Below, one piece after another: positions 189-12,595 of a DNA stretch of 29,835 nt. This DNA is from a virus (taxonomy: Duplodnaviria > Caudoviricetes): the IMG/VR virus record IMGVR_UViG_3300033407_000092, positions 1-29,835 of that record; one strand, 5' to 3'. Every line of letters starts with the position of its first letter. Within the stretch, counting starts at the first letter, position 1. The translations under genes and the position numbers were made by a program. Under the pieces are notes generated by a model. That model had not been told where the DNA came from and searched no databases. It saw nothing but the letters and a program-made list of their open reading frames with translations.

Positions 189-503
189 ATGAAAACTGAA
201 ATATTTAATAGTTACGCTGACTTCACCGCGCGCGAAGATAAAACGCTAAACGGCGTCTCTAAAGCGTTCGCGGCAAGCCATAGCGACTACGCAGACGAGC
301 GTAACAACGTCGGCTGCTGGAACTGCAACCACTGCAACGACTGCAACGACTGCATCTACTGCAACGACTGCAACCGCTGCAGCCTCTGCAACGACTGCAA
401 CGACTGCAACGACTGCAACGACTGCGAATTCTGCAACGACTGCAACGACTGCAACGACTGCAACCGCTGCAACGACTGCAGCTTTCAGGATTGTTCTTTT
501 TAA
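189..503 (+). CDS. Cys-x-x repeat protein, paralog 1 (104 aa, 20 Cys)
   Basis: Start moved to ATG 189: it follows AGGGGTAG and aligns with the start of paralog 1807..2262. Conserved head followed by (CND)n repeats. Confidence 0.85.
   Translation: MKTEIFNSYADFTAREDKTLNGVSKAFAASHSDYADERNNVGCWNCNHCNDCNDCIYCNDCNRCSLCNDCNDCNDCNDCEFCNDCNDCNDCNRCNDCSFQDCSF
315..485 (+). repeat. 9-bp tandem repeat, consensus TGCAACGAC, 19 units
   Basis: Read directly; encodes the C-x-x units. Confidence 0.95.
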
Positions 504-527
504 TAGCAAACGAGGAGTACCACCACA

Positions 528-983
528 ATGACTAAACAAGAAACTATTAACGCGCTAGCGCTGTTCCACTGCCGCATTGAGTTTAGCAAACCCCAGAACC
601 TGCGTTATCAAACAGGTATCGTGTTCCAAGTAGGCGGCCCCGCCGTCGGTAAAGTCACATTACGCAAAGGCCGCCTCCTAGCCATCCATTGGTACGGCGG
701 CATTAATAGTCATCGCTACCTGCAAGTAGCGTTTAACGAATACCTGTCATCCGGCTACTTCTTAACGGTTGACGAGTTCACCTCTCTGTGGAACCAAGCA
801 GAGCTTTTGTATCGCGAAGAAGCCGCAAAGCTAGCCGCCGAAGAGCACGAGACCAAAGTTTTCGACGATAAGCGCCAGTTTAAGCGCTACAATAAAGTTA
901 AGCCGCAATCGCCCGCGCACTTCTTTAACGCGCTGCTACGTCGCGAAATACCATTTGTTTATTGGCCAAAAACCGATAAGTAG
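528..983 (+). CDS. Hypothetical protein
   Basis: 151-aa ORF with GAGGAG RBS, co-oriented with neighbours; no motif recognised. Confidence 0.75.
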   Translation: MTKQETINALALFHCRIEFSKPQNLRYQTGIVFQVGGPAVGKVTLRKGRLLAIHWYGGINSHRYLQVAFNEYLSSGYFLTVDEFTSLWNQAELLYREEAAKLAAEEHETKVFDDKRQFKRYNKVKPQSPAHFFNALLRREIPFVYWPKTDK

Positions 984-1029
984 TCTACGCTAAAAGGGTA
1001 GCTAACTTTAAACGCCTAAGGAGGCAAAA

Positions 1030-1335
1030 ATGGAGCGTATCACTCATATGAATAACGAAAGGCTTCAGGTAATAATGCGTGACCTCGCTGCGTGCGGCGT
1101 GCTTGAGAACTTAGTCCTCACACTAGGATCAGGTTTTTTCAGGTTTATGCTGCCCCGATGGGTTCACACAACGATAGTATTTATAAAATCGTCGCTTATT
1201 TTGTCATACGCGAAGGAAATAGAATTCGTGATAGAACATCTTAGGCAGGGCAATATAGCGTTCGACGGCACCGAGTTTTTCGTGTTAACTAAACAGCAAA
1301 AAGAGAGGCTAATCAAAAATGAACATGAAGCATAA
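1030..1335 (+). CDS. Hypothetical protein
   Basis: 101-aa ORF preceded by TAAGGAGG. Confidence 0.75.
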   Translation: MERITHMNNERLQVIMRDLAACGVLENLVLTLGSGFFRFMLPRWVHTTIVFIKSSLILSYAKEIEFVIEHLRQGNIAFDGTEFFVLTKQQKERLIKNEHEA

Positions 1336-1789
1336 ATACATAACGGTTCACGCCAGCGCGACAAAGACAAGCCAAGATATCGGTGTTGAAGAGATCACAG
1401 AGTGGCACCAGGCAAGGGGCTACAGAACGATCGGGTACCACCTTGTTATCCGTCGCGACGGGACAGTACAGCCCGGCCGCGATATAAACATACGGGGCGC
1501 GCACGTAAAGGGCTACAACACTAGCAACATTGGAATATGCCTTATCGGCGGCGTAGATGACGACGGCAAACCTGAAAATAATTTCACTAACGAACAGTGG
1601 CTAACGCTGTGGTATGTGATATCCGAGTTAATGCGCCGCTACGGTATTGAGCTAGAAAACGTTAAGGGCCACCGGGACTGGCCAGGAGTTAAAAAAGCTT
1701 GCCCCTGTTTTGATGTCCAGGATAAGTTAGGGTCGTGGGATGAACGCGAAAGTTGGAAATCGCTTAGCGATCTTAAACAGCTCAAGTAA
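1319..1789 (+). CDS. N-acetylmuramoyl-L-alanine amidase (T7 lysozyme / Amidase_2 type endolysin)
   Basis: Motifs ITVHASAT, IGYH, GAHVKGYN, IGICLIGG, GHRD and KACP carry the Zn-binding His/His/Cys set and the catalytic Tyr. The start could be 1325. Confidence 0.92.
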   Translation: MNMKHKYITVHASATKTSQDIGVEEITEWHQARGYRTIGYHLVIRRDGTVQPGRDINIRGAHVKGYNTSNIGICLIGGVDDDGKPENNFTNEQWLTLWYVISELMRRYGIELENVKGHRDWPGVKKACPCFDVQDKLGSWDERESWKSLSDLKQLK

Positions 1790-1806
1790 ACAAAAAGGGG
1801 TAAGCC

Positions 1807-2262
1807 ATGAATACATTAATATTTAACAGCCGCGAAGAGTTCAACGCGCGTGCAGACAAAACAGTAAACGGCGTATCAAAAGAGTTTGCAAAAATTCATA
1901 GCGATTACGGCATCGAGTTTAACAACGTCGGCTGTTGGAACTGCCTAAGCTGCGAAAACTGCAAAGGCTGCACAAAATGCCGCCGCTGCACAAACTGCCT
2001 AAGCTGCACAAACTGCCTAAGCTGCGAAAGCTGCGAAAACTGCCTAAGCTGCGAAAACTGCCTAAGCTGCGAAAACTGCAAAGGCTGCGAAAACTGCCTA
2101 AGCTGCGAAAACTGCCTAAGCTGCGAAAACTGCAAAGGCTGCGAAAGCTGCGAAAACTGCCTAAGCTGCGAAAACTGCAAAGGCTGCGAAAGCTGCGAAA
2201 ACTGCGAAGTCTGTAACTTCTGCGCACACTTAAAATCCAGCGAAATTTACAACTTCCTCTAA
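1807..2262 (+). CDS. Cys-x-x repeat protein, paralog 2 (151 aa, 33 Cys)
   Basis: First 46 aa are 32/46 identical to 189..503, followed by CEN/CLS/CKG repeats. Confidence 0.85.
   Translation: MNTLIFNSREEFNARADKTVNGVSKEFAKIHSDYGIEFNNVGCWNCLSCENCKGCTKCRRCTNCLSCTNCLSCESCENCLSCENCLSCENCKGCENCLSCENCLSCENCKGCESCENCLSCENCKGCESCENCEVCNFCAHLKSSEIYNFL
1933..2229 (+). repeat. 9-bp tandem repeat TGC-NNA-NNC (TGCGAAAAC / TGCCTAAGC / TGCAAAGGC), 33 units
   Basis: Read directly. Confidence 0.95.
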
Positions 2263-2399
2263 GAGGTGCAGGCCAAAAGTGTGAATGTCAGGCACAGCGG
2301 AGATGGTATGTCTCTAGATCAGCAAGCGGTTATACTTGGCACTAAAAAAAACGTAGCGAAGTATATATTTAGCATCAACAAAAAAGGTAGGGGTTAATC

Positions 2400-3470
2400 A
2401 TGAGTAAAAAAATAGCATTTAAAGCGACAAATAAAGACCTCAGATGCCAGGAGCATCAATTTAAAATTGGTAAAGAGTACGCTCTTGACCCTAGTGTGAA
2501 AATAAAGGCCTGTTGTGATGGCTTTCACGCGTGTGAAAACCCGATTGACGTACTAGATTATTACCCGCTAATAGGGTCTCGTTTTTTCGTGGTTAAGCAG
2601 AGCGGAAGAATGGATGTGAAAGGTAATAAAACAGCATCTGAAAAAATTATTCTTAAAGAAGAGTTAGATTTGAAAGCGTTCATAGAGAAAATAGTTGAGC
2701 ACACACGGGACAGCCAGTCCACAACATCGATAGATGAATCCAGATACGCGCGGCTCGCATCTAGAAGCGATACAGCAACTTTGTTTGCATCAGGCGACTA
2801 TGCACATCTTACGGCCTCCGGGGCGCACTCACATCTTGTAGCCTCCGGAGATTGCGCGGCACTTGCAGCATCCGGGGCTTACTCGTATCTTGTCGCATCT
2901 GGATATGCTGTGCATCTTAGCGCCTCCAGACAATATTCATGTCTCGCGGCCTCCGGTGACTTGGCAAGGCTTTCCGCTACAGCTAACGAGGCACAACTTG
3001 CGGCCTCCGGCGTTAACGCAAAAATTATGTCCTCCGGCGATAATACACGAATTGCGGCCACAGGCGACAGTTCAAAACTTGCGGCCGCGGGTGATTTCGC
3101 GCAAATTACGGCTTCTGGCGGCAGCTCAAGGCTTACGGCCTCCGGCTACGGCGCAAGACTTACGGCTACGGGTGACAATTCTATTCTCAACGCCTCCGGT
3201 GATAAGTGTACTCTCAACGCCTCAGGCGTTAACGCGCATCTTTACGCGTCAGGTTTCGGCTCAGGCCTTACTGCGTCAGGTAGTGGTAGCGTAATAATAG
3301 CAACAGGGATGGGTAGTAAGGTTAGCGGATGCAAGGGTACGTTTGTTTGCTTGATGCATTACTTTGACGGGTTTCCTGTTGAATTGGTGAGAGGGAAGAT
3401 AGGCGAGGACGGGTTAAAAGAAAATGTGGTGTACGAACTTGACGCAAACGGTAATTTCGTAAAGGTATAA
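2400..3470 (+). CDS. DUF7666-like phage protein with central 9-aa (ASG) solenoid repeats, paralog 1
   Basis: N-terminal FKA..KDLRC...F.IGKEY..C..GFHACENP.DV..YY...SRF; repeated xASGxxxxL; C-terminal G.IGEDGLKENV.Y.LD..G.F. Confidence 0.8.
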   Translation: MSKKIAFKATNKDLRCQEHQFKIGKEYALDPSVKIKACCDGFHACENPIDVLDYYPLIGSRFFVVKQSGRMDVKGNKTASEKIILKEELDLKAFIEKIVEHTRDSQSTTSIDESRYARLASRSDTATLFASGDYAHLTASGAHSHLVASGDCAALAASGAYSYLVASGYAVHLSASRQYSCLAASGDLARLSATANEAQLAASGVNAKIMSSGDNTRIAATGDSSKLAAAGDFAQITASGGSSRLTASGYGARLTATGDNSILNASGDKCTLNASGVNAHLYASGFGSGLTASGSGSVIIATGMGSKVSGCKGTFVCLMHYFDGFPVELVRGKIGEDGLKENVVYELDANGNFVKV

Positions 3471-3492
3471 ACTAAAAAGGTAGAGATAAGTC

Positions 3493-4434
3493 ATGAAAAA
3501 ATTAATGTTTAAAGCGACAGATAAAGACTTAAGGAGTTGTAAATATTACCGGTTTGAAATTGGCAAAGAGCATGCTACGACAGGTAAAATAGAAGCGTGT
3601 AAAAATGGTTTTCACGCGTGTGAGAACCCGCTTGACGTCTTAATGTATTACCCGTTAATTGGCTCGCGTTTTTTCGTGGTTAAGCAGCGCGGGGCGAAAG
3701 ACATAGAAGAAAACAAAACAGCATCCGAAAAAATAGTTCTCGAAAAAGAGCTGGATTTAAAATCTTTTATAGAATACGCAGTTATTCACGCACGTAAGTA
3801 TGCGAATACCGGCTATGCAGCCGTACTTGCAGATTCCAACGACGGGTCAAAAATTGCAGTAGCTGGCAGCCATGCACAAATCGCTGCATCTGGTGATTCT
3901 ACGCAGATTGTCGCCTCTGGTGAGTCCACGTGGCTCGCGGCCGCAGGCACAGGCTCAAAACTAGTAGCTTTCCGGGGTAACTCAGCGCTTGCGTCGTCTG
4001 GTTACAACTCGAAACTTATGTCCTCTGGCGACGAGTCAAGACTAGCAGCCTCCGGCAACAACTCAGAGATTGCAGCTTTGGGGTTTAGAACAGGCATCGT
4101 ATCCTCTGGAAGCAGTTCAACCCTCAAGTCATTCGGCGATAAGTCGGAAATTGCGGCAACGGGCTTCCGGTCAATACTTGTGGCGTCTGGGGGTCTCTCA
4201 AGACTTGTGGCGTCTGGCGATAATGCCCGAATCACGGCGTCTGGGTGTAATAGTGTAGTAGCGGCTGTGGGGCAGGATAGTATGGTTAGCGGATGCAATG
4301 GTACGCTTATCTGCTTAACGCATTACGTGGGTGGATTACCAGTTAAATTCGTAACAGGTAAAATAGGCGAGAAGGGATTAAAAGAGAACGTATCATATGG
4401 ACTTGATAGAAAAGGTAGGTTTGTAGAAGTATAA
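3493..4434 (+). CDS. DUF7666-like phage protein, paralog 2
   Basis: Same architecture as 2400..3470 with fewer, diverged repeats. Confidence 0.8.
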   Translation: MKKLMFKATDKDLRSCKYYRFEIGKEHATTGKIEACKNGFHACENPLDVLMYYPLIGSRFFVVKQRGAKDIEENKTASEKIVLEKELDLKSFIEYAVIHARKYANTGYAAVLADSNDGSKIAVAGSHAQIAASGDSTQIVASGESTWLAAAGTGSKLVAFRGNSALASSGYNSKLMSSGDESRLAASGNNSEIAALGFRTGIVSSGSSSTLKSFGDKSEIAATGFRSILVASGGLSRLVASGDNARITASGCNSVVAAVGQDSMVSGCNGTLICLTHYVGGLPVKFVTGKIGEKGLKENVSYGLDRKGRFVEV

Positions 4435-4465
4435 ACATAAACAGCAACTAAAAGGTAGATTTAAT

Positions 4466-4720
4466 ATGAAAACTAAAACAGAAACTAAAACAGCTAGTGT
4501 AACTAATGACGCAGAGTTCGGCGCACTTTCCGTCCAATTAACCAATGTCTATATAACTAACGGCTTAAACGCAGAGGAGGCACTAAACCATCTTACTTGT
4601 TACATGTTAGAGGTTCTACTTTGCGTGGGGGTATCTGAGGCAGAAGCCGTGAGCAGCCAAGGGAAACACATGCAATTAACGATTACTGATGTCAGTGAAG
4701 AAAACGGCGCGCTTAACTAA
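4466..4720 (+). CDS. Small acidic hypothetical protein, paralog 1
   Basis: AAAGGTAG RBS; about 55% identical (41/75 by hand) to 4811..5056. Confidence 0.85.
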   Translation: MKTKTETKTASVTNDAEFGALSVQLTNVYITNGLNAEEALNHLTCYMLEVLLCVGVSEAEAVSSQGKHMQLTITDVSEENGALN

Positions 4721-4752
4721 TAGAGGCCTAAGCTGCGCTAAAACCGACAGGC

Positions 4753-4779
4753 GCAAATGGTAAGTTCGTAGAAGTATAA
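4753..4779 (+). pseudogene. Relic 3' end of a DUF7666-like gene (ANGKFVEV*)
   Basis: GCA AAT GGT AAG TTC GTA GAA GTA TAA matches the ends ANGNFVKV* (3444-3470) and RKGRFVEV* (4408-4434). Confidence 0.75.
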
Positions 4780-4810
4780 ACATAAACAACAACTAAAAGG
4801 TAGATTTAAT

Positions 4811-5056
4811 ATGAAAACTAAAATAGCTAGTGTAACTAATGACGCGGCGTTCAATGAAATTTCAGGTAAAGTAATTCAGGTTTATGTGGATAAGGGCTTA
4901 GAGCCAGAGGACGCAATAAAACATCTTACTTGCTTATTGTTAGAGCTTCTCCTTCATAATGGGGTATATGAAATTGAAGGAGGGAACAGCCAAGGAAAAT
5001 ACATGCACTTAAAGATTATTGATGTTAGTGAAGACTTAGGCACGCTTAACTCATAG
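4811..5056 (+). CDS. Small acidic hypothetical protein, paralog 2
   Basis: Same leader as 4466..4720; shared ASVTNDA, HLTC, SQGK and DVSE motifs. Confidence 0.85.
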   Translation: MKTKIASVTNDAAFNEISGKVIQVYVDKGLEPEDAIKHLTCLLLELLLHNGVYEIEGGNSQGKYMHLKIIDVSEDLGTLNS

Positions 5057-5066
5057 ATGCTAAGCG

Positions 5067-5105
5067 GCGCTAAAACCGACAGGCACAAATGGTCGGTTTT
5101 AGCGC
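5067..5105. repeat. Perfect 14-bp inverted repeat with 11-nt loop (possible terminator or processing hairpin)
   Basis: GCGCTAAAACCGAC (5067-5080) / GTCGGTTTTAGCGC (5092-5105); no U-tract follows. Confidence 0.85.
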
Positions 5106-5116
5106 GACTCATATCC

Positions 5117-5161
5117 AATATGTAAAACGTGTGATAATATACCTAACACGTTTTACATATT
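5117..5161. promoter_or_regulatory. Perfect 16-bp inverted repeat with 13-nt spacer around an extended -10-like element, upstream of terS
   Basis: AATATGTAAAACGTGT (5117-5132) / ACACGTTTTACATATT (5146-5161); TGT-GATAAT at 5130-5138. The repeat is seen; its function is inferred. Confidence 0.65.
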
Positions 5162-5189
5162 AAATATGATATTACAGGTGATACGAATT

Positions 5190-5960
5190 ATGAAATTCAA
5201 AAAGCTAACTAAGTCAGAAATGCGGATAATTAATTATTACGTTATTCACCGGGACCGCTCAAAAGCGTATCGCCTGGGTTATCCGCAAAGCGTCAACTGG
5301 AAAGATGAAACGGTTAAGGCTAAGGCTGACGAGTTTTTCGACTCAGAAAGAATAAAATATTACAGGGGATTCAAGGACGGCGGTATCGTGGTGGCCGACG
5401 AGGACGAAATAATGACGGAAGAGGAAGTACTCTATGAGATCGATAGAGTGCCTGCTGTTGGAGCGCACAACGGCGGCGGTCGCCCGTCAAGATACCGCCC
5501 CGAATTTCCGCAGATGATGATCAACTTCTTCGATATCGGCCCACAAAAAATAATAGAAAACGTGAACGAAGAAACCGGAGAAGTAACTCACACAGTACTA
5601 ACCAATATATTCCCAACCAAAGAGGCATTCGCGGCATCTCTCAGAGTGAGCATGCAGACGCTGAACGATTGGGCCACTAAAAAAGATGAGTTTGGCGAGT
5701 TCAGATACCCTGAATTTGCCGAGGCCTACGAAATTGTGGGCGCTATGCAAGAGTCAATCCTAATTACAAACACGCTCATGGGTAAGTATAACGCCAATTT
5801 TGCTCAGTTTATATCCAAGGTTAAATTGGGGTATGAAGAAAAAAGCAAGTTGGTGGTGGAAGGTGGTGATAAGCCAATAGTGTTGATAGGTGCCAATATG
5901 ACGGCTGAAGAAGCCGACGTAATATATCGTGAGTTTTTACTCGGCAATAAAGAAAAGTAG
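5190..5960 (+). CDS. terS: Terminase small subunit (apparently two TerS-type domains)
   Basis: Start moved to ATG 5190 (AGGTGA RBS). N-terminal LT..E....Y......SKAYRLGY..KDETV..KA; central GRPSRYRPEF..FPT.E.FA..L.VS..TL.DWA..YPEF.EAY..QE..YNANFA.F; C-terminal MTAEEA..IY. Confidence 0.8.
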   Translation: MKFKKLTKSEMRIINYYVIHRDRSKAYRLGYPQSVNWKDETVKAKADEFFDSERIKYYRGFKDGGIVVADEDEIMTEEEVLYEIDRVPAVGAHNGGGRPSRYRPEFPQMMINFFDIGPQKIIENVNEETGEVTHTVLTNIFPTKEAFAASLRVSMQTLNDWATKKDEFGEFRYPEFAEAYEIVGAMQESILITNTLMGKYNANFAQFISKVKLGYEEKSKLVVEGGDKPIVLIGANMTAEEADVIYREFLLGNKEK

Positions 5961-5970
5961 GGTGGTTAAC

Positions 5971-6153
5971 ATGGAATCATGGCAAGTAAGATTACAAATA
6001 GAGGCGATGGCTTGTGTTGTTCGTGTAGAGGGTATGAAGGCGGAAAATCAAGCTAGAATCCAAAATGGGGAAGCGATTGCATATGTAGCAGGCCATTTCA
6101 ATGAAGAGGCCGGAGAGCTATCTCGGCTAGCTCGTGAAATAGGAATGGGTTAA
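5971..6153 (+). CDS. Hypothetical phage protein (60 aa)
   Basis: Start moved to ATG 5971 after GGGTGG; EGMKAENQ.R...G..IAY resembles a motif common in small phage proteins. Confidence 0.7.
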   Translation: MESWQVRLQIEAMACVVRVEGMKAENQARIQNGEAIAYVAGHFNEEAGELSRLAREIGMG

Positions 6154-6157
6154 ACAA

Positions 6158-6328
6158 ATGATTAGCAGAAAAAGGCCGATGGCAGTAGAAAAAGTTAAGG
6201 ATATTAAATTGATGCTATTGTTTTCAGGGCTTAAAGTAAAAGAGATAGCGCGCTATCACGGTATCAGCCCAGGGTCAGTATCACAGATAAAACGCGGCGA
6301 TATATGGGCCGACGTCGATATTGATTAG
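6158..6328 (+). CDS. Small HTH DNA-binding protein (56 aa), missing from the ORF track
   Basis: MISRKRPMAVEKVKDIKLMLLFSGLKVKEIARYHGISPGSVSQIKRGDIWADVDID*; contains the HTH pattern EIA..HGIS..SVS.IKRG..W. Confidence 0.75.
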   Translation: MISRKRPMAVEKVKDIKLMLLFSGLKVKEIARYHGISPGSVSQIKRGDIWADVDID

Positions 6329-6368
6329 CATCGCTAACATTTTTTATTATTACTTTTTATAACAAAAC

Positions 6369-6396
6369 TTGATATTTTTAAATTTTGTACTAGTAT
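6369..6396 (+). promoter_or_regulatory. Putative sigma70 promoter
   Basis: TTGATA-N16-TAGTAT in AT-rich intergenic DNA before 6424. Confidence 0.45.
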
Positions 6397-6423
6397 TAGA
6401 GTTAAAAGGCGGGGAGAACTAAG

Positions 6424-6669
6424 ATGAACACATATAAATATGATGGGGAGTTAGCGACCCTAGTGCGTTTAATGCGATCAGTAAGCCTGGAATGCGAGGT
6501 TGGTATCTTCCCTATTCGTGACTCGGGAAAAATACGGCTCGTGTGGATTAACCGCCAGCATTCGCACATTAGAACTTTTGACGCGACGTTCAATACCACA
6601 CAGGCCAACTTGAAGAATATAAAGTTCGTGCATGCATTACAAGACGCCAAAAAAGCCATGCGCGATTAG
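6424..6669 (+). CDS. Hypothetical protein
   Basis: 81-aa ORF with GGGGAG RBS. Confidence 0.7.
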   Translation: MNTYKYDGELATLVRLMRSVSLECEVGIFPIRDSGKIRLVWINRQHSHIRTFDATFNTTQANLKNIKFVHALQDAKKAMRD

Positions 6670-6678
6670 TACAAGTTT

Positions 6679-6758
6679 AAAAAATCCTAACTACCTTAGG
6701 ATCTGGCGGTCGAAAGGCTAAAATATATGGACTCGCCCACCTGAGCCAAAAACGGGCC
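6679..6758 (-). ncRNA. Candidate ~80-nt small RNA (5' pseudoknot plus terminator hairpin)
   Basis: Lies downstream of a - strand promoter. GCCCGUUU/AGGUGGGC stem whose loop GGCUC can pair with GAGUC; ends in AUCCUAA/UUAGGAU plus a U-run. Confidence 0.45.
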
Positions 6759-6762
6759 ACTA

Positions 6763-6791
6763 ATTTTATACTAGCAACGTTGAGGTGACAA
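6763..6791 (-). promoter_or_regulatory. Putative antisense sigma70 promoter
   Basis: TTGTCA (6791-6786)-N17-TAAAAT (6768-6763). Confidence 0.55.
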
Positions 6792-6843
6792 GATGAAAAT
6801 AAGTAATAAGCGAATAGTCGCAGGGTCGATACTAGCAACGTTG
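6768..6843. repeat. 15-bp direct repeat ATACTAGCAACGTTG (6768-6782, 6829-6843)
   Basis: Exact copies with a palindromic core CAACGTTG. Confidence 0.85.
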
Positions 6844-7204
6844 CTGTTTCTCGGTCCAATAAATAAGCCCAAAGCGGGGCAGCCAACCAGTAAAATAGAG
6901 CAGAAGATCCTAACCGAAAATATAAAACTTGACCAAATACGCGCTTTAACAACATGCTTAGTTTACGTAACACATAGCGATAACAGCGACAAAGAAGAGT
7001 ACGCGCAAAAGGCGCGAAAGATGCTTCTAATGTTTCCCCGTTCGTACAATAACGTAAGCTCTTATTTTTTTGGCTTAGCTAAAGGCTACATGCACGGTAT
7101 TGCGGTTAGAACTAGAGAGCGTTACTCGCATCTAACCGAGGAGCAAGTAGTCGTGATTACTGCTGGCATTCTGTTCAATAGGGCAGAATGCACAAAAGCA
7201 GTAA

Positions 7205-7218
<14 letters not shown>
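6793..7218 (+). CDS. Hypothetical protein with N-terminal hydrophobic (signal/anchor) segment
   Basis: GAGGTGA RBS; MKISNKR followed by IVAGSILATLLFLG. Confidence 0.75.
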
Positions 7219-7555
<337 letters not shown>

Positions 7556-7564
7556 GAGTGTCAC

Positions 7565-7984
7565 ATGTACACTAGAAATAAAATCTTATACAAAAAGGGG
7601 TATAAATATCAGCTAGTAGAAGGGCTTAGCAGCTTGGTAAATATATATCCTGTTAAGACTATTATTTCAGAATATATTATTCTATCCACTTTCGGAGAGC
7701 TGTACCTTAAACGCGGCTACGCCTGGGACGGCGCAAGCGGGGCGATTGATACGCCATCATTTATGCGTGGGTCAGCGGTACATGATGCATTGTACCAGTT
7801 AATGCGACTGGGGTTATTAGACGCTGATAAGTATCGTAAGATAGCGGATAAAGAACTCCGGAATATGTGCAAAGAAGATGGTATGGGTATTTTTCGTGCT
7901 GCTTATGTCTACAAAGCGGTGCGCTTACTTGGTAGCAAGCATGTAAAACCAAGTAGTAAGAAGCTGACCTTTACAGCGCCATAG
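7565..7984 (+). CDS. DUF1353-like protein
   Basis: GYAWDGAS...DT..FMRGSAVHDALY...AD motif; AGGAG RBS. Confidence 0.7.
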   Translation: MYTRNKILYKKGYKYQLVEGLSSLVNIYPVKTIISEYIILSTFGELYLKRGYAWDGASGAIDTPSFMRGSAVHDALYQLMRLGLLDADKYRKIADKELRNMCKEDGMGIFRAAYVYKAVRLLGSKHVKPSSKKLTFTAP

Positions 7985-8001
7985 AATATAGGGGGTGTTT
8001 T

Positions 8002-8262
8002 ATGACACGATTAGAGATGAAGTTGCGGAAATTCTTTAGCACAATAAAATGTATTAACGAATTAGAAACAGGCGAAATAGATCGCATAGTTGACTGCGCT
8101 AAGACAGCAATTAAAAAAGGCGAAGAGTGGGGGATAAAAGGCACCATAAATTACGATACAAAAACGTGTAAATACAGCTTAAAAATAGTAGAGCTATGCG
8201 TTGCTGAACACTCGGATTTTAGCGTGGAAAGAATGCTAGCTTACGCACATAGCATTAAATAA
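8002..8262 (+). CDS. Hypothetical protein
   Basis: 86-aa ORF with GGGGGTG RBS. Confidence 0.7.
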   Translation: MTRLEMKLRKFFSTIKCINELETGEIDRIVDCAKTAIKKGEEWGIKGTINYDTKTCKYSLKIVELCVAEHSDFSVERMLAYAHSIK

Positions 8263-8275
8263 GGAGTAAAACAGT

Positions 8276-8572
8276 ATGCGTGACGCCATTTTGTATGAAT
8301 ATCGCTTAATAGAAGAAGGTACCGCCGATACCAGTACAGTATTTGATATTGAGCAAGAGGAGTCAGATGATTCAGAGGAGGACAGCACAAAGAAATGGGA
8401 GAAAGTCGAGGTATGTCGCGTTAAATTTCATGCGTTTGGGGTGAATTATGAAGAGTTCAATAGCAATATTGGCATCTATTCATCCGCGATTATAGAAATG
8501 CCGGACGGCATGTTAGAAAATGTTCCGGTAGAGTTAATTCAGTTAGTGCCAGATGGCGTAACATTGCAATAA
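8276..8572 (+). CDS. Conserved hypothetical phage protein (acidic)
   Basis: TAAGGAG RBS; FHAFG..YEEF......AIIE.PDG..ENVP pattern resembles a common phage family. Confidence 0.75.
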   Translation: MRDAILYEYRLIEEGTADTSTVFDIEQEESDDSEEDSTKKWEKVEVCRVKFHAFGVNYEEFNSNIGIYSSAIIEMPDGMLENVPVELIQLVPDGVTLQ

Positions 8573-8586
8573 TAGGGGTAATAAAA

Positions 8587-8823
8587 ATGCTTAAAATGAA
8601 TGGTGGTTTTAAAATGACAGATAAAAAGAATGACAAGACTATAGTAGAAAATATGCTGTTATACATAGCGGAGTACATTCTGCCTAAGAAATTAGTGTTT
8701 ATATGCGCGGTAATTGTAGTAGCCCACGCGTTAGAGGGTAAGCACAAGGGAACCGATAGAATGCGTTTACTCGCCGTAGAAGCGCTCGCGCGTTTCGCTG
8801 CAGATAACGGTTTGATAAAATAA
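8587..8823 (+). CDS. Hypothetical protein with a hydrophobic segment
   Basis: 78-aa ORF; alternative start at 8614. Confidence 0.6.
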   Translation: MLKMNGGFKMTDKKNDKTIVENMLLYIAEYILPKKLVFICAVIVVAHALEGKHKGTDRMRLLAVEALARFAADNGLIK

Positions 8824-8835
8824 GAAGGGTAGGGT

Positions 8836-9024
8836 ATGAAAGAGTTTGATGTAGAAGCAGCAAAAGCAGGCTATCCAGTTTGCGATATAGAAGGCACACC
8901 AGTGCGTGTAGCGCATTACGATACACAAAACAACATGTACCATATTATGTACATGAATCACAATCGCGGCAGTTGGGCTACAGGTAAAGATTTACGCATG
9001 TTAACCGGTAACAGCCGCAGGTAA
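8836..9024 (+). CDS. Hypothetical phage protein
   Basis: MKEFDVEAAKAG.PVC...G..VR N-terminus resembles a common small phage protein family. Confidence 0.7.
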   Translation: MKEFDVEAAKAGYPVCDIEGTPVRVAHYDTQNNMYHIMYMNHNRGSWATGKDLRMLTGNSRR

Positions 9025-9517
9025 TTTTTTAACTTTAAATACAGGGGTAAATACAAAATGAGTGAAAATACTAAGACACCGCATGCACACGCAGAGTTGA
9101 TACATAAGTGGGCGGATGACACAAGTCAAGTTGTACTTTTTAACGTTTCCGATAATTGGGAAGTTATGACGTATATTGTAGGTTTTTTATGGGATCCAAA
9201 GAATAAGTATTTCTTAGTATGCGAAGAGCACGTAGATATTGCGCTGCACTGGTTGAACGGTGGACAGGTCGAAATAATGCATCCACAGGAGGGGACCTTT
9301 ATGCGTACAAATAACCCGCAATTCGTCGCAGGCTATGTTTACCGTAAAGTCCTTACAGCAGAACAGAAAGCTGAGATAGGAGAGCTAGAGGATTATATAT
9401 CCATCAATCGACAAGTGATTAAAAATCTTACGGCAAGAGCAAAAAGCTTGACTGACCGTACGCGTGAGATGGAAGCTAAGATTCGTAGTTACGAGCAATA
9501 GGCCGCAGGTAATTTTT
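9014..9517 (+). repeat. 16-bp direct repeat GCCGCAGGTAATTTTT flanking gene 9058..9501
   Basis: Exact copies at 9014-9029 and 9502-9517. Confidence 0.88.
9058..9501 (+). CDS. Hypothetical phage protein with C-terminal coiled coil
   Basis: PHAHAELIHKWA N-terminal motif; heptad-like C-terminus. Confidence 0.75.
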   Translation: MSENTKTPHAHAELIHKWADDTSQVVLFNVSDNWEVMTYIVGFLWDPKNKYFLVCEEHVDIALHWLNGGQVEIMHPQEGTFMRTNNPQFVAGYVYRKVLTAEQKAEIGELEDYISINRQVIKNLTARAKSLTDRTREMEAKIRSYEQ

Positions 9518-9518
9518 C

Positions 9519-9597
9519 AAAGATAAGATAAACGTCGAGGGAGCGGCGGAAAGGAAAGGGTAGGAAACCTGACCGCCGGGGGTTCTCCCCCGACGAG
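9519..9597 (-). ncRNA. Candidate ~75-nt small RNA with a pyrimidine-rich anti-RBS-like loop
   Basis: On the - strand: 11-bp stem CGUCGGGGGAG/CUCCCUCGACG (one G-U), 6-bp stem CGGCGG/CCGCCG, loop UCAGGUUUCCUACCCUUUCCUUU and a U-rich tail; begins just after a promoter. Confidence 0.55.
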
Positions 9598-9602
9598 CCT
9601 CT

Positions 9603-9631
9603 AGTATACCCCGCCAACATTAAACAATCAA
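9603..9631 (-). promoter_or_regulatory. Putative sigma70 promoter for the small RNA
   Basis: TTGATT (9631-9626)-N17-TATACT (9608-9603). Confidence 0.6.
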
Positions 9632-9646
9632 TCATCCCACCAGCTA

Positions 9647-12070
9647 TTACTCACCTTCATTATTCAATTCAACTATAAAATCACGAAACTTTTCAGCGTT
9701 ACAGTCAAGTATTTTTTCTTTAAACCGTTGAATAGCGGCCGGGTCACCTGCCTGCTTCGCTGATTTCTGGCCGTTACCTTTATTCTCAATAGTATATCGT
9801 AGATAGCAGTTTTTACCGTCGAGTTTAAATTTCACGTTCGATTTAAACTTACCTCCAAGCGGAGCAGTATAATCGTTAAGCGCTTTTTTGAGCTGCGTAT
9901 CCCAGTAAGTAGTATTAGGTGCTTCACAAATTGACGCGTATTTTGCAATCCACTCTATTATTAATTTAGTACAGAACACGCCTTCGCAGTACTTTTCTGC
10001 GAACAAAATGCTACCTATCACCAGTCTATTGATGGGAGTCGCGCTACCCCTTTGTGACAGCAGGTCTTCTTCTGACGTTGTTTGTACTTCGGTTCCAACA
10101 GGCGCGAAGGGATTGTAGTTATCTATATTACGATTTTTAAGCATCAGCCATATACTCGGCTGCCAGTCTGTTTCTAACCACTTGTGTAATTTTGTAAAGT
10201 TTTCTGGACTGTCTACCTCAGTAGTACACGATATAAATTTAAAACGCCTATCGTTCAGCGGAATATTTAAAGTGTCGGCGTGTTGTGAGCATATGATATA
10301 GCTTGAATAGACTTTAGATTCTGTTTGGCCGCCGTATTTTGTTTTTAACACATGAGTAGTAGGGGAGGGGTCTATACCAGATTTTAGCGCTTCATACGCC
10401 TTATGTTCCTGCCGGGGGTTTAAGCTGATATCTTTTGCTTCGGGCACTATAACGTATGCTTTTCGTAGCCAATCATTGAAACCCTCACCTGCTAACCCCC
10501 CTAAAAGCTCTCCCAAGCCCACTACAGCGATATTGTTAGAACCCCAAAGCATTCCTAGCATCTTGCTTAAAGTGCCGCGTCCTGAGCCTTGTATGGGCGT
10601 AGTTAGTACCGCGCAGGGGCCGCGTAAAGTATGGTCTTGCACTTTAGATGCTATGTGGTCGAGAAACCAGGTGGCGTCGTCTTTATCCGGTATAAGGTAA
10701 TTGATAAAATCTACGAATGTGGACTCGTTATACGCTCTGCGTGAGACCTTTTCAGTCTCCCAAAGTGGCCGTTTAAATAGATTTAAAAATTTGTTGGGCC
10801 CTTTTTCTATGACAAGTTCGTTGCACGGTTCGTATATTTCACCGTGCAGGGTTAAAACGTTAGCTTCCATCAGCTTCCATTGTGGCACACACTTACAGTT
10901 TCCTTTTTTATCCACGTAAAAAGCTTTGTCACAATACATCTGACGCCACGAAGTAGGCGAGTATCTCAATCCTGCGCCCGATTTTACATCGAAATAGAAC
11001 CCGCTGGACGCGTTAGCTACATAAACCCATTTAACCGAGTTAGTAGGGGCATGGTCAACGTATCCAACTTCCGGCCCGCCAAGCTTCGCGATTTCCTCTA
11101 AAAATTCTGTGGGGGTTCTATGGCTACAGTGCCCATGAAAACAATGAAACCCCCGAGTTTCAGGGCGATCGCCGAAGCCTAAAGGGCTATAGCCTGCCGT
11201 GTTACCGGTACCCTCAGAGTGTTCCTCATGCCACGGACAAATAACTTCTATCCAGTCGGTTCCCTCCGTCACTATTAGCTCTTTTGCGTTTAAGAATTCA
11301 ACCACTTCATCGACTACGCCACCGAGATTTTCGAGATACGCGCCAGGTTTCCAGGGTGCTGTACCTCGGGTTCTGCGCGGGTCTTTTTTACTTGCGGACC
11401 CGTTTTGTACGTCTTCCCAGGTAACACCCGCGTTTACAGCCGTAAGCAGTTCATCAGGCGTGAAAGTATTAAAGGGCTCGTCAGTGGGGTCAGTATCCCG
11501 CACTTTAAACGCCCCGTTTTCTGTAACGTATTTGGATTTTAAGTTTATACCGCATGGCAATCTAACCAATTTGTTAGCCAGTGCACCGCCGCTATCCCAT
11601 GGGCCGGCCCCATATATAATTCTAATTAAATCGGATGCGGCGTTAATGTCGCTGATAGGCTCCTCTAATACATAGCCATATTGAAAGTTGTCGGGTGACG
11701 TTTCAACACACCACGAATATTCACACCTTAATAAATCCGGTAGTTTATCAGGGGGGCATTTAGAACCTGGCCCGGTGCCTATGTCGTCAAGTACTACGCA
11801 ATGTAAGCGGTTGAAAAGCTTCTTCAAATTGCGTAATTTACTAAAATGTGTGTCAGAATCAGGGTCATAATCCGGGTCCTCTATAGCCGTAGCCGTACTA
11901 AAATAACAGGCCTTACCGGCGGCCCCCCGGGAGGACATAAATTCATCGTAGGATTTAGCTATGCCAGGTGTGGACTTAGCACTCGCACAAAATATACGAT
12001 GCTCGTCTTCATTTAGGTTTCTAAATATGTTGTTTAAAAAGGTATTGATATTTTTAGCGTCGTCACTCAT
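9647..12070 (-). CDS. Primase-helicase (RepB-type primase, Zn-binding domain, DUF5906/SF3-like NTPase)
   Basis: CVVLDDIG and ETSPDNFQYGY (RepB-like primase); CPW.EEH...FHCFHGHC; P-loop QGSGRGT, FNDW and DRRF. Confidence 0.85.
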   Translation of the reverse strand: MSDDAKNINTFLNNIFRNLNEDEHRIFCASAKSTPGIAKSYDEFMSSRGAAGKACYFSTATAIEDPDYDPDSDTHFSKLRNLKKLFNRLHCVVLDDIGTGPGSKCPPDKLPDLLRCEYSWCVETSPDNFQYGYVLEEPISDINAASDLIRIIYGAGPWDSGGALANKLVRLPCGINLKSKYVTENGAFKVRDTDPTDEPFNTFTPDELLTAVNAGVTWEDVQNGSASKKDPRRTRGTAPWKPGAYLENLGGVVDEVVEFLNAKELIVTEGTDWIEVICPWHEEHSEGTGNTAGYSPLGFGDRPETRGFHCFHGHCSHRTPTEFLEEIAKLGGPEVGYVDHAPTNSVKWVYVANASSGFYFDVKSGAGLRYSPTSWRQMYCDKAFYVDKKGNCKCVPQWKLMEANVLTLHGEIYEPCNELVIEKGPNKFLNLFKRPLWETEKVSRRAYNESTFVDFINYLIPDKDDATWFLDHIASKVQDHTLRGPCAVLTTPIQGSGRGTLSKMLGMLWGSNNIAVVGLGELLGGLAGEGFNDWLRKAYVIVPEAKDISLNPRQEHKAYEALKSGIDPSPTTHVLKTKYGGQTESKVYSSYIICSQHADTLNIPLNDRRFKFISCTTEVDSPENFTKLHKWLETDWQPSIWLMLKNRNIDNYNPFAPVGTEVQTTSEEDLLSQRGSATPINRLVIGSILFAEKYCEGVFCTKLIIEWIAKYASICEAPNTTYWDTQLKKALNDYTAPLGGKFKSNVKFKLDGKNCYLRYTIENKGNGQKSAKQAGDPAAIQRFKEKILDCNAEKFRDFIVELNNEGE

Positions 12071-12073
12071 AAT
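12045..12073 (+). promoter_or_regulatory. Putative antisense promoter overlapping the primase start codon
   Basis: TTGATA (12045-12050)-N17-CATAAT (12068-12073). Confidence 0.5.
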
Positions 12074-12100
12074 AAAACCTCAGCAATTAAATTTCCCATT

Positions 12101-12131
12101 AGCCCGGGCCCCCATAGAACCGGGTTTTTTT
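12101..12131 (+). terminator. Intrinsic terminator oriented against the - strand operon
   Basis: AGCCCGG-N12-CCGGGTT with T7 on the + strand; the stem has a G-U pair that forms only on the + strand. Confidence 0.65.
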
Positions 12132-12133
12132 AT

Positions 12134-12595
12134 TTAGAATCTATAGTTAAAGCTCAAACTAAATACGAGCGCTTCGCCGAACCAAGTCACTTTAGGTATA
12201 AAGTAGTCATATTTTGTATACGCTACAGACGCAGCAAACAGCGCAGACGTTTCACTGTATCCGCTTACGTATCCCACGTTAACAGATGCTTCTATGTTTT
12301 TAACTGGCTGCCAGTAGTGGGCATACGACAGCGCATATGATTTGACGTAATAGCTATTGGTAAAAGATGTGAGTTCAGCACCATGCGTTTGATTACGGTA
12401 CGCGACAGAAAACATGTTTAATTTATTATTTAGATTGTATTTATCTTCGTCTAAAAAAAGTTTATGCGAAGCATACGCAAAATAGGTGACTTGTAGAAAC
12501 GGCTCTTCTATAATGCGGTTTTTAATCGGGGATTTTTCTTCGGCGCTGATGGCCTGAAAAGGTAGTAATAATAGTAGCACTAGTAATATTTTCAT
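12134..12595 (-). CDS. Outer-membrane beta-barrel protein, PagP-like family
   Basis: Signal peptide MKILLVLLLLLPFQAISA; amphipathic strands; F-x-NS-Y and G-x-V-x-GY motifs; C-terminal FSLSFNYRF (BAM beta-signal). Confidence 0.7.
   Translation of the reverse strand: MKILLVLLLLLPFQAISAEEKSPIKNRIIEEPFLQVTYFAYASHKLFLDEDKYNLNNKLNMFSVAYRNQTHGAELTSFTNSYYVKSYALSYAHYWQPVKNIEASVNVGYVSGYSETSALFAASVAYTKYDYFIPKVTWFGEALVFSLSFNYRF

Follow-up and report, generated by a model that had tools for sequence, protein, structure and literature searches.

Staphylococcal RNAIII is a multi-hairpin RNA with C-rich loops, and among the phage-encoded RNAs c4 has an Rfam entry. In alphaproteobacteria, the small RNAs (sRNAs) of the alphaR8 family, such as MmgR of Sinorhizobium and SisA-D of Caulobacter, share the core decamer UUUCCUCCCU, an anti-Shine-Dalgarno (anti-SD) signature, and overexpressed SisA, which bears this decamer, represses many targets (PMC12559287). 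In these RNAs, the decamer lies between a weak hairpin and a separate terminator, the gene usually neighbors an FGase gene on the chromosome of an alphaproteobacterium, and CrfA sponges SisA-D via a G/A-rich loop (PMC12559287). Anti-hemB, also named ncS04, is expressed in Burkholderia cenocepacia (PMC5688073; further background in PMC1950547). The Burkholderia 'toxic small RNAs' (RF02278) contain unpaired CU-rich stretches predicted to cover many ribosome-binding sites (RBSs), and their overexpression lowers growth (PMC5688073). Phages also encode base-pairing RNAs, namely VpdS, PreS, OOP, c4, and AsxR; the phage sRNAs covered in the cited part of the review act on single targets, host sRNAs, or Hfq (PMC12197685).

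We analyzed a 29.8-kb fragment of an uncultured tailed phage (29,835 nucleotides, hereafter the window). Soil and sediment metagenomes contain window DNA, and at least half of the sampled words were present in three of them, one of which is a possible source; the listed data sets with window DNA included none from RNA. The nearest cultured matches are distant (terminase, at most 45%; polymerase, at most 33%) and belong mostly to proteobacterial phages; no similar DNA was found in the cultured phages and plasmids searched. The element studied here is located in a 145-nt gap between the end of a plus-strand cluster (9501) and the end of a minus-strand primase-helicase gene (9647). The primase-helicase (9647..12070, minus strand) is the upstream neighbor; it has a weak RepB-primase N-terminus and an SF3 helicase related to PDB 6K9C/6K9E, and its stop codon is 52 nt from the start of the rod described below. 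The convergent gene (9058..9501, plus strand), a phage hypothetical gene, is the final gene of the left accessory cluster (189-9501), which consists mostly of small genes; a minus-strand RNA reading through would be antisense to it. Contigs of run X3 span positions 9397-9652 with zero differences, but this identity is uninformative for the rod because the flanking primase pieces are equally identical. Contigs of X2, X4, and X5 leave the rod uncovered.

Several other features were observed in the window. The left cluster contains three paralog pairs (189-503, 1807-2262, 2400-4434, 4466-5056), among them two Cys-rich proteins made of 9-nt repeats; the leaders were duplicated together with the genes. 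At 5041-5169, ahead of the small terminase gene, there are inverted repeats nested within one another, with arms of 24 nt (92% complementary) and perfect arms of 14 nt, which are possibly an operator or a packaging signal. The sequence CTAAAAGG occurs five times (990, 4448, 4793, 16212, 19166), always on the plus strand and four times in intergenic regions. A gene for a PagP-like outer-membrane protein (12134-12595, minus strand) is directly upstream of the primase gene; in L001 and L002, genes of similar appearance, compared without alignment, are located downstream of the primase gene. On the plus strand at 12045-12134, a promoter-like site with 10/12 matches, whose − 10 region lies over the primase start codon, is followed by a GC hairpin and a U run (12100-12134). 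This site would yield a cis-antisense RNA of about 55 nt from over the primase SD, comparable to the countertranscripts of plasmid copy control.

The earlier note on this DNA described the sequence TTGATT-N17-TATACT before a GC-rich rod with 11-bp and 6-bp stems and a U-rich tail. All of these are present, and the hairpin element is real and is read on the minus strand, which the note had left unnamed. The candidate sigma70-like promoter TTGATT-17-TATACT (9603..9631, minus strand; 9/12 matches) has a predicted start near 9596-9598. The 2-kb region has no excess of promoter-like sites (4 versus 4.6 expected), but only 0.65% of minus-strand bases have such a site ending 4-9 nt upstream. The rod (9533..9595, minus strand) comprises an 11-bp outer stem with one G-U pair (9595-9585 with 9543-9533), a 6-nt bulge on the 5′ side, a 6-bp inner stem (9578-9573 with 9549-9544), and a 23-nt loop region. 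It folds at − 34.3 kcal/mol (z − 4.51), a value reached by none of 200 shuffles; the opposite strand folds at − 30.3. The 23-nt loop is present as a region, but the predicted fold adds 3 bp inside it and leaves an open loop of 13 nt; opening the whole region is predicted to cost approximately 4.9 kcal/mol. The 15-nt loop core, UUUCCUACCCUUUCC (9553..9567, minus strand), contains the anti-SD decamer of alphaR8 interrupted by a single inserted A, and the same letters are found in the homolog L174 described below.

The rod is followed by the U-rich tail UUUAUCUU (9519..9532, minus strand), which has 6 U in its first 8 nt from position 9532 and is likely a terminator tract. In the intrinsic-terminator test, we found the stem and an interrupted U tract (6/8), with a loop of more than 8 nt, beyond what the terminator scan scores; the scan detected no other terminator-like site in the gap. 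The statement that the element contains no ORF is true of the RNA itself, although a 48-codon ATG frame (9635-9489, minus strand) crosses the element. This frame is probably incidental, because the longest listed ORF of L174 reads the identical 15-mer in another frame.

An alternative 5′ hairpin, CGGGGG-AGAA-CCCCCG, had been proposed to act as a switch. The hairpin (9573..9596, minus strand) exists and excludes the rod; it has 10 bp including G-U pairs (− 19.3) rather than 6. It is the first structure to form in stepwise folding of the nascent RNA, and its weight in the full-length ensemble is approximately 1e-6. The window hairpin was significant in our test (1/300), but the same test was significant in none of 13 relatives, and the hairpin is absent from L174, whose 5′ half folds at − 2.5. 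The proposed switch is not a conserved feature of the class; the hairpin may still influence folding or read-through in this phage.

We scanned viral contigs for the 15-nt core and obtained 48 loci, 45 of them distinct. A matching rod was found at one of the 45, represented by L095, which is the same locus as L149, L171, L174, and L276 (record G004). L174 presents the core as a fully open loop, with a 6-bp stem, a 5-nt bulge on the 5′ side, an outer stem of 11-12 bp with another sequence, and a U-rich tail. The energy of its enclosing rod was − 30.4, whereas the other four of the 45 distinct loci with at least 15 enclosing pairs reached − 14.8 or weaker. A model built from the window alone matched L174 at 26.2 bits, with 17/17 pairs intact and 6 altered on both sides, as counted in an alignment fitted to the model. 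The loop was itself the criterion by which L174 was picked out of a very large collection, and a 26-bit score alone is expected a few times at that scale (about 26 Gb, a rough estimate). Among 4000 native flanks, 12 gave a rod as good as that of L174 (about 0.13 expected for 45 loci), and 37 of 200,000 random flanks gave both inner arms beside the core (about 0.008 expected for 45 loci). No sigma70-like site was found at L174.

Two more scans (42 and 32 loci) gave no second homolog: no matching rod was seen at the remaining 41 and 31 loci, respectively, or at any of 4 loci of another set, and most of these loci were in long open frames. L108 shares 22 nt, but these lie within a reading frame, and it was rejected. 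A scan with a 20-mer of the loop gave no match in viral contigs and one, without a rod, in genome contigs. As a separate observation, the 15-mer in L092, L116, and L120 (3 of the 48 loci, near 401-415) pairs with an adjacent reverse complement to form terminator-like hairpins.

Record G004 is a 4.8-kb fragment with an unrelated replication module, consisting of genes for an exonuclease, a Sak4-like protein, a 149-aa protein, and a ParB-methylase, and it has no primase gene. The small-RNA module appears to move between unrelated phages. The 149-aa gene had zero Pfam or PHROG matches; its neighbors suggest an 'SSB-like' product. The L174 rod is located downstream of this gene, in a region that we call the slot.

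We collected relatives of the 149-aa gene (the best 80 of 148 viral loci, 2 genome loci, and 1 annotated phage), which provided 68 distinct downstream regions. A rod finder requiring an open CU motif and a U tail was designed after the sequences had been viewed; it matched 17/68 sense slots (one of them, L229, doubtful), 1/68 antisense slots, 0/136 shuffles, and 0/205 other gene ends. When given the element of the window within 420 nt of context, the finder does not detect it. Six rods aligned without fitting had an outer stem that was 100% paired, with 5/10 pairs altered on both sides; in a fitted set of 13, including three probable non-members, 16/18 pairs were altered on both sides. The CU strand was the better-folding strand in just 9/18 elements, and G-U pairs numbered 43 versus 25. 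The slot class is tied to the window only indirectly. Model R1, built from six CCUCCC rods, detected neither the window element nor that of L174. Model R3, built from the window and L174, was searched against 830 kb without the training sequences, and its top match was the slot rod of L187 (E 0.0015), followed by L184 and then weakly by L176, L182, L222, and L180 (13 of the loci, filters off). The exact decamer UUUCCUCCCU was found in 6/68 slots and in 0 antisense, with 8 exact matches across all 756 kb of loci.

The slot regions showed further regularities. In L175-L252, the 0-420 nt past the 149-aa gene form a variable cassette of a first hairpin followed by the rod, and the rod loops differ among close relatives (CCUCCC, CCUACCC, CCUCCUCC). 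A second motif, CAGUUGCC, occupies the bulge in certain rods and the loop in other rods (L176, L180, L182). A GG(T/C)A(T/A)TT(A/G)CCCGTG-like motif lies 15-40 nt past the rod tail (L189, L191, L194, L196, L198, L204, and others); in many slot phages it trails the rod or the first terminator, upstream of the ParB-methylase gene, and it is possibly an operator. This phage class was not described in the literature searched. In PMC10690425, none of the searched motifs or contig identifiers appeared in the seven supplementary files searched.

We also searched bacterial genomes. R1 gave no match in 4 genomes, R3 none in 151 genomes of one sampled class, and the exact 15-mer none in 401 genomes of one sampled class; one-mismatch matches of the 15-mer numbered 53 versus about 60 for the control (hand count). 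These blanks carry little weight. Two unpublished genomes, G049 and G127, are counted in these numbers, and the claims made here are independent of their sequence.

Comparison with the described families showed both likenesses and differences. Like alphaR8, the rods would be short RNAs with a terminal U tail and a single-stranded anti-SD decamer, exact in 6/68 slots. However, the loops of the window and L174 are UUUCCUCCCU plus one inserted A, which departs from the exact decamer; in the window the decamer-like seed is the apical loop of one rod with no separate terminator; and the neighbors are a phage primase-helicase gene and a phage hypothetical gene, with no FGase gene. The inner hairpin of L191 resembles the first hairpin of Burkholderia anti-hemB nearly letter for letter and scored 31.1 bits against that family (RF02837), and L194 scored 17.3, compared with a gathering threshold of 49.5. 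Anti-hemB has two separate hairpins instead of one nested rod, and the window did not match it at E values up to 10. The toxic small RNAs likewise are two-hairpin host RNAs, whereas the window element is a single rod. No Rfam family, c4 among them, matched the window at gathering level (junk alone appeared at E up to 10), and none of 15 slot loci attained an Rfam gathering score. The analogy with RNAIII and RsaE drawn in the earlier note concerns mechanism only; neither gave an Rfam match. The element shares phage origin and a predicted action by base-pairing with VpdS, PreS, OOP, c4, and AsxR, and none of the RNAs in the cited part of the review is an anti-SD rod common to unrelated phages (PMC12197685). 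Judged by seed, architecture, and score, the window element lies outside alphaR8 and anti-hemB, but it most likely works like them. The module is probably either a descendant or a mimic of the anti-SD sRNAs of proteobacterial hosts.

These results support a structured small RNA, probably an independent one, whose anti-SD loop is exposed. The most likely explanation is that it is an anti-SD small RNA that has a host-type seed and belongs to an uncatalogued phage class, because of the L174 rod, the slot class, and a seed one A away from the alphaR8/MmgR decamer. We hold with moderate confidence that it is a trans-acting RNA of about 75 nt (9597-9520, minus strand) with broad purine-rich leader targets; the rod, loop, tail, homolog, slot class, and seed are all observed. 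Transcription would start at the neighboring promoter, or the RNA would be the 3′ end of the primase operon transcript, and it would terminate at the U tail. The CU loop would then base-pair with purine-rich Shine-Dalgarno leaders and block translation. Its targets would most likely be broad, comprising purine-rich leaders of host and phage, with the GG(G)UAG leaders of the left cluster favored though not exclusive (8836 best, followed by 5971, 9058, 2400, and 189).

A narrower explanation is that the RNA is a dedicated self-regulator, its seed retuned to the GG(G)UAG barcode, which would turn the left accessory cluster off once the replication genes are on. This is unlikely; it corresponds to the inference in the earlier note that one RNA silences a whole class of phage (or host) mRNAs through a shared RBS barcode. 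Exact 9-nt complements of the loop are present at 993-1001 (AAAGGGTAG) and 8825-8833 (AAGGGTAGG); with at most one mismatch, the 9-mer occurs 6 times versus 5.2 expected. The site at 8825-8833 is an RBS, but that at 993-1001 lies 29-37 nt before ORF 1030, with the SD-like AAGGAGG nearer the start. The GGTAG core was found in the leaders of 189, 2400, 3493, 4466, and 4811, as had been noted; the leaders of 3493, 4466, and 4811, three of the six GGTAG leaders, share one duplicated intergenic stretch. GGTAG or GGGTA was present in 9/21 left-cluster leaders, versus 1/19 other leaders of the window and 9/312 leaders of other phages, the last taken from crude first-ATG calls. In pairing with GGUAG, it is the inserted A that would face the U.

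The best predicted target in a whole-window scan was also a leader, covering the SD and start codon of the 62-aa ORF 8836 (8823..8840, plus strand; − 19.9), with a predicted net energy of − 10.3 kcal/mol after opening costs. The second-best window site reached − 19.5, a margin of 0.4 kcal/mol, 12 of 12 shuffled loops reached a stronger best site, and just 2 of the 25 best window sites were leaders. With the leaders of other phages as reference, the 15-mer outperformed the natural CCUCCC loops on the left leaders (p 0.0035, or 0.031 when three paralogs were removed), and equally selective shuffled 15-mers numbered 11/300 (17/300 without paralogs). Ranked among 40 leaders, the top 7 were all from the left cluster, a result matched by 6 of 300 shuffled loops. 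Because several tests were run, the positive leader p-values are suggestive only.

Other results speak against such tuning. The left leaders did not differ clearly from the rest (p 0.16), and without paralogs the signal had p values of 0.03-0.06. Tests of the longest exact match were not significant, the observed values being reached by 92-532 of 1000 shuffles. The AAAGGTAG leaders showed weak pairing (− 7.7 to − 8.3). L174 has the identical core but the motif in 0/5 plus-strand leaders, a weak result since the fragment is only 4.8 kb; its five leaders pair better with CCUCCC loops. The barcode claim is sustained only in part, by the left-leader preference, and not by the exact-match tests or the L174 leaders; tuning to the phage's own leaders is weakly supported by the sequences. 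We regard as equally tentative the version in which a mobile anti-SD module came from host RNAs of the alphaR8/anti-hemB type and its one-base seed change fits the phage's own GG(G)UAG barcode.

It is improbable that the element is only a terminator or 3′ stabilizer of the primase operon between convergent genes, with an incidental loop. The rod does lie 52 nt past the primase stop in a gap flanked by convergent genes, it has a U tail, and the scan gave no other terminator-like site in the gap; the slot rods likewise come after an operon end. However, a terminator would have no need to keep every letter of a 15-nt loop in an unrelated phage whose outer stem has a rewritten sequence. The slot family already has a separate hairpin before the rod, and the promoter-like site of the window is in register with the rod.

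We consider it quite improbable that the RNA is a decoy that mimics alphaR8-type sRNAs to titrate Hfq or a CrfA-like sponge, or that its GA-rich strand sponges host anti-SD sRNAs. A seed equal or nearly equal to the alphaR8 decamer, the sponging of SisA-D by the G/A-rich loop of CrfA (PMC12559287), and the folding of the opposite strand are in line with such a role. The U tails and the promoter favor the CU strand, however (17 versus 1), and the inserted A breaks perfect mimicry.

Still less probable is that the element acts at the DNA level, as a stem-loop origin of replication like those of pRN1 and BIP-1, immediately 3′ of the primase-SF3 helicase gene. This alternative arises because the pRN1 stem-loop, which is essential, starts 54 bp past the primase-helicase gene orf904, and a similar one has been proposed for phage BIP-1 (PMC4234260). 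The window stem-loop is located at a closely similar distance (+ 52) 3′ of an AEP primase-SF3 helicase gene. The stem-loop of pRN plasmids is about 100 nt long with a poorly conserved sequence, whereas in the present element it is the sequence of the loop that is conserved. We fetched loci of primase relatives from three collections. Origin-like two-way repeats (at least 5 copies) were found at the matching position in 14/39 of them, but the window scored 0, its gap having neither two-way repeats nor a long AT-rich stretch, and the region as DNA was unremarkable (z − 0.8). No equivalent structure is kept at that place: the close relatives L002, L056, L057, L059, and L047 had nothing comparable past the primase stop, and no CU rod was found in the primase relatives, including the complete G002. 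The homolog in L174 lies past the unrelated 149-aa gene on a fragment without a primase gene, and the slot class is strand-specific with U tails. The recognition sites of RSF1010 (ssiA) and NrS-1 were also considered (PMC8567376, PMC8718748); the NrS-1 octamer and GTG triplet do not occur in the minus-strand rod.

The two-way repeat clusters that directly follow the primase gene in these relatives (L003, L017, L020-L022, L024, L028, L031, L038, L041, L044, L046, L048, and L068) are mostly accompanied by an AT-rich stretch, and the repeat word varies among phages. In L001 (8416-8495) and L051 (8412-8490), an 11-bp inverted repeat is located directly past the primase stop; it is absent from L002 and L056, and an overlapping alternative hairpin shows a compensatory change between the two phages. 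Its CU segment is loop-like, but we rejected it as a homolog: the pattern was devised after both sequences had been seen, neither locus was within the top 40 tiles of an a priori loop alignment, and models R2 and R3 gave no match.

A chance hairpin, with L174 a convergence of low-complexity CU sequence, would fit the low-complexity loop, the one homolog, and the modest significance at database scale, but it is the least probable explanation. The window and L174 agree in the loop, the inner stem, the letters at the junction, the side of the bulge, and the tail, and the model built from both goes on to detect slot rods that are independent of them.

The most likely explanation thus remains an anti-SD small RNA with a host-type seed. 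Few phage sRNAs have a known mechanism. If this explanation is true, phage-borne anti-Shine-Dalgarno rods with swappable loops, a host-type seed, and transfer among unrelated phages would be an RNA-only means of broad translation tuning. The natural CCUCCC and CCUACCC loops make it directly testable whether the seed decides which class of leaders is silenced. If the barcode is also true, one 75-nt RNA, made together with the replication genes, would silence a whole class of phage genes at the RBS with no protein regulator.
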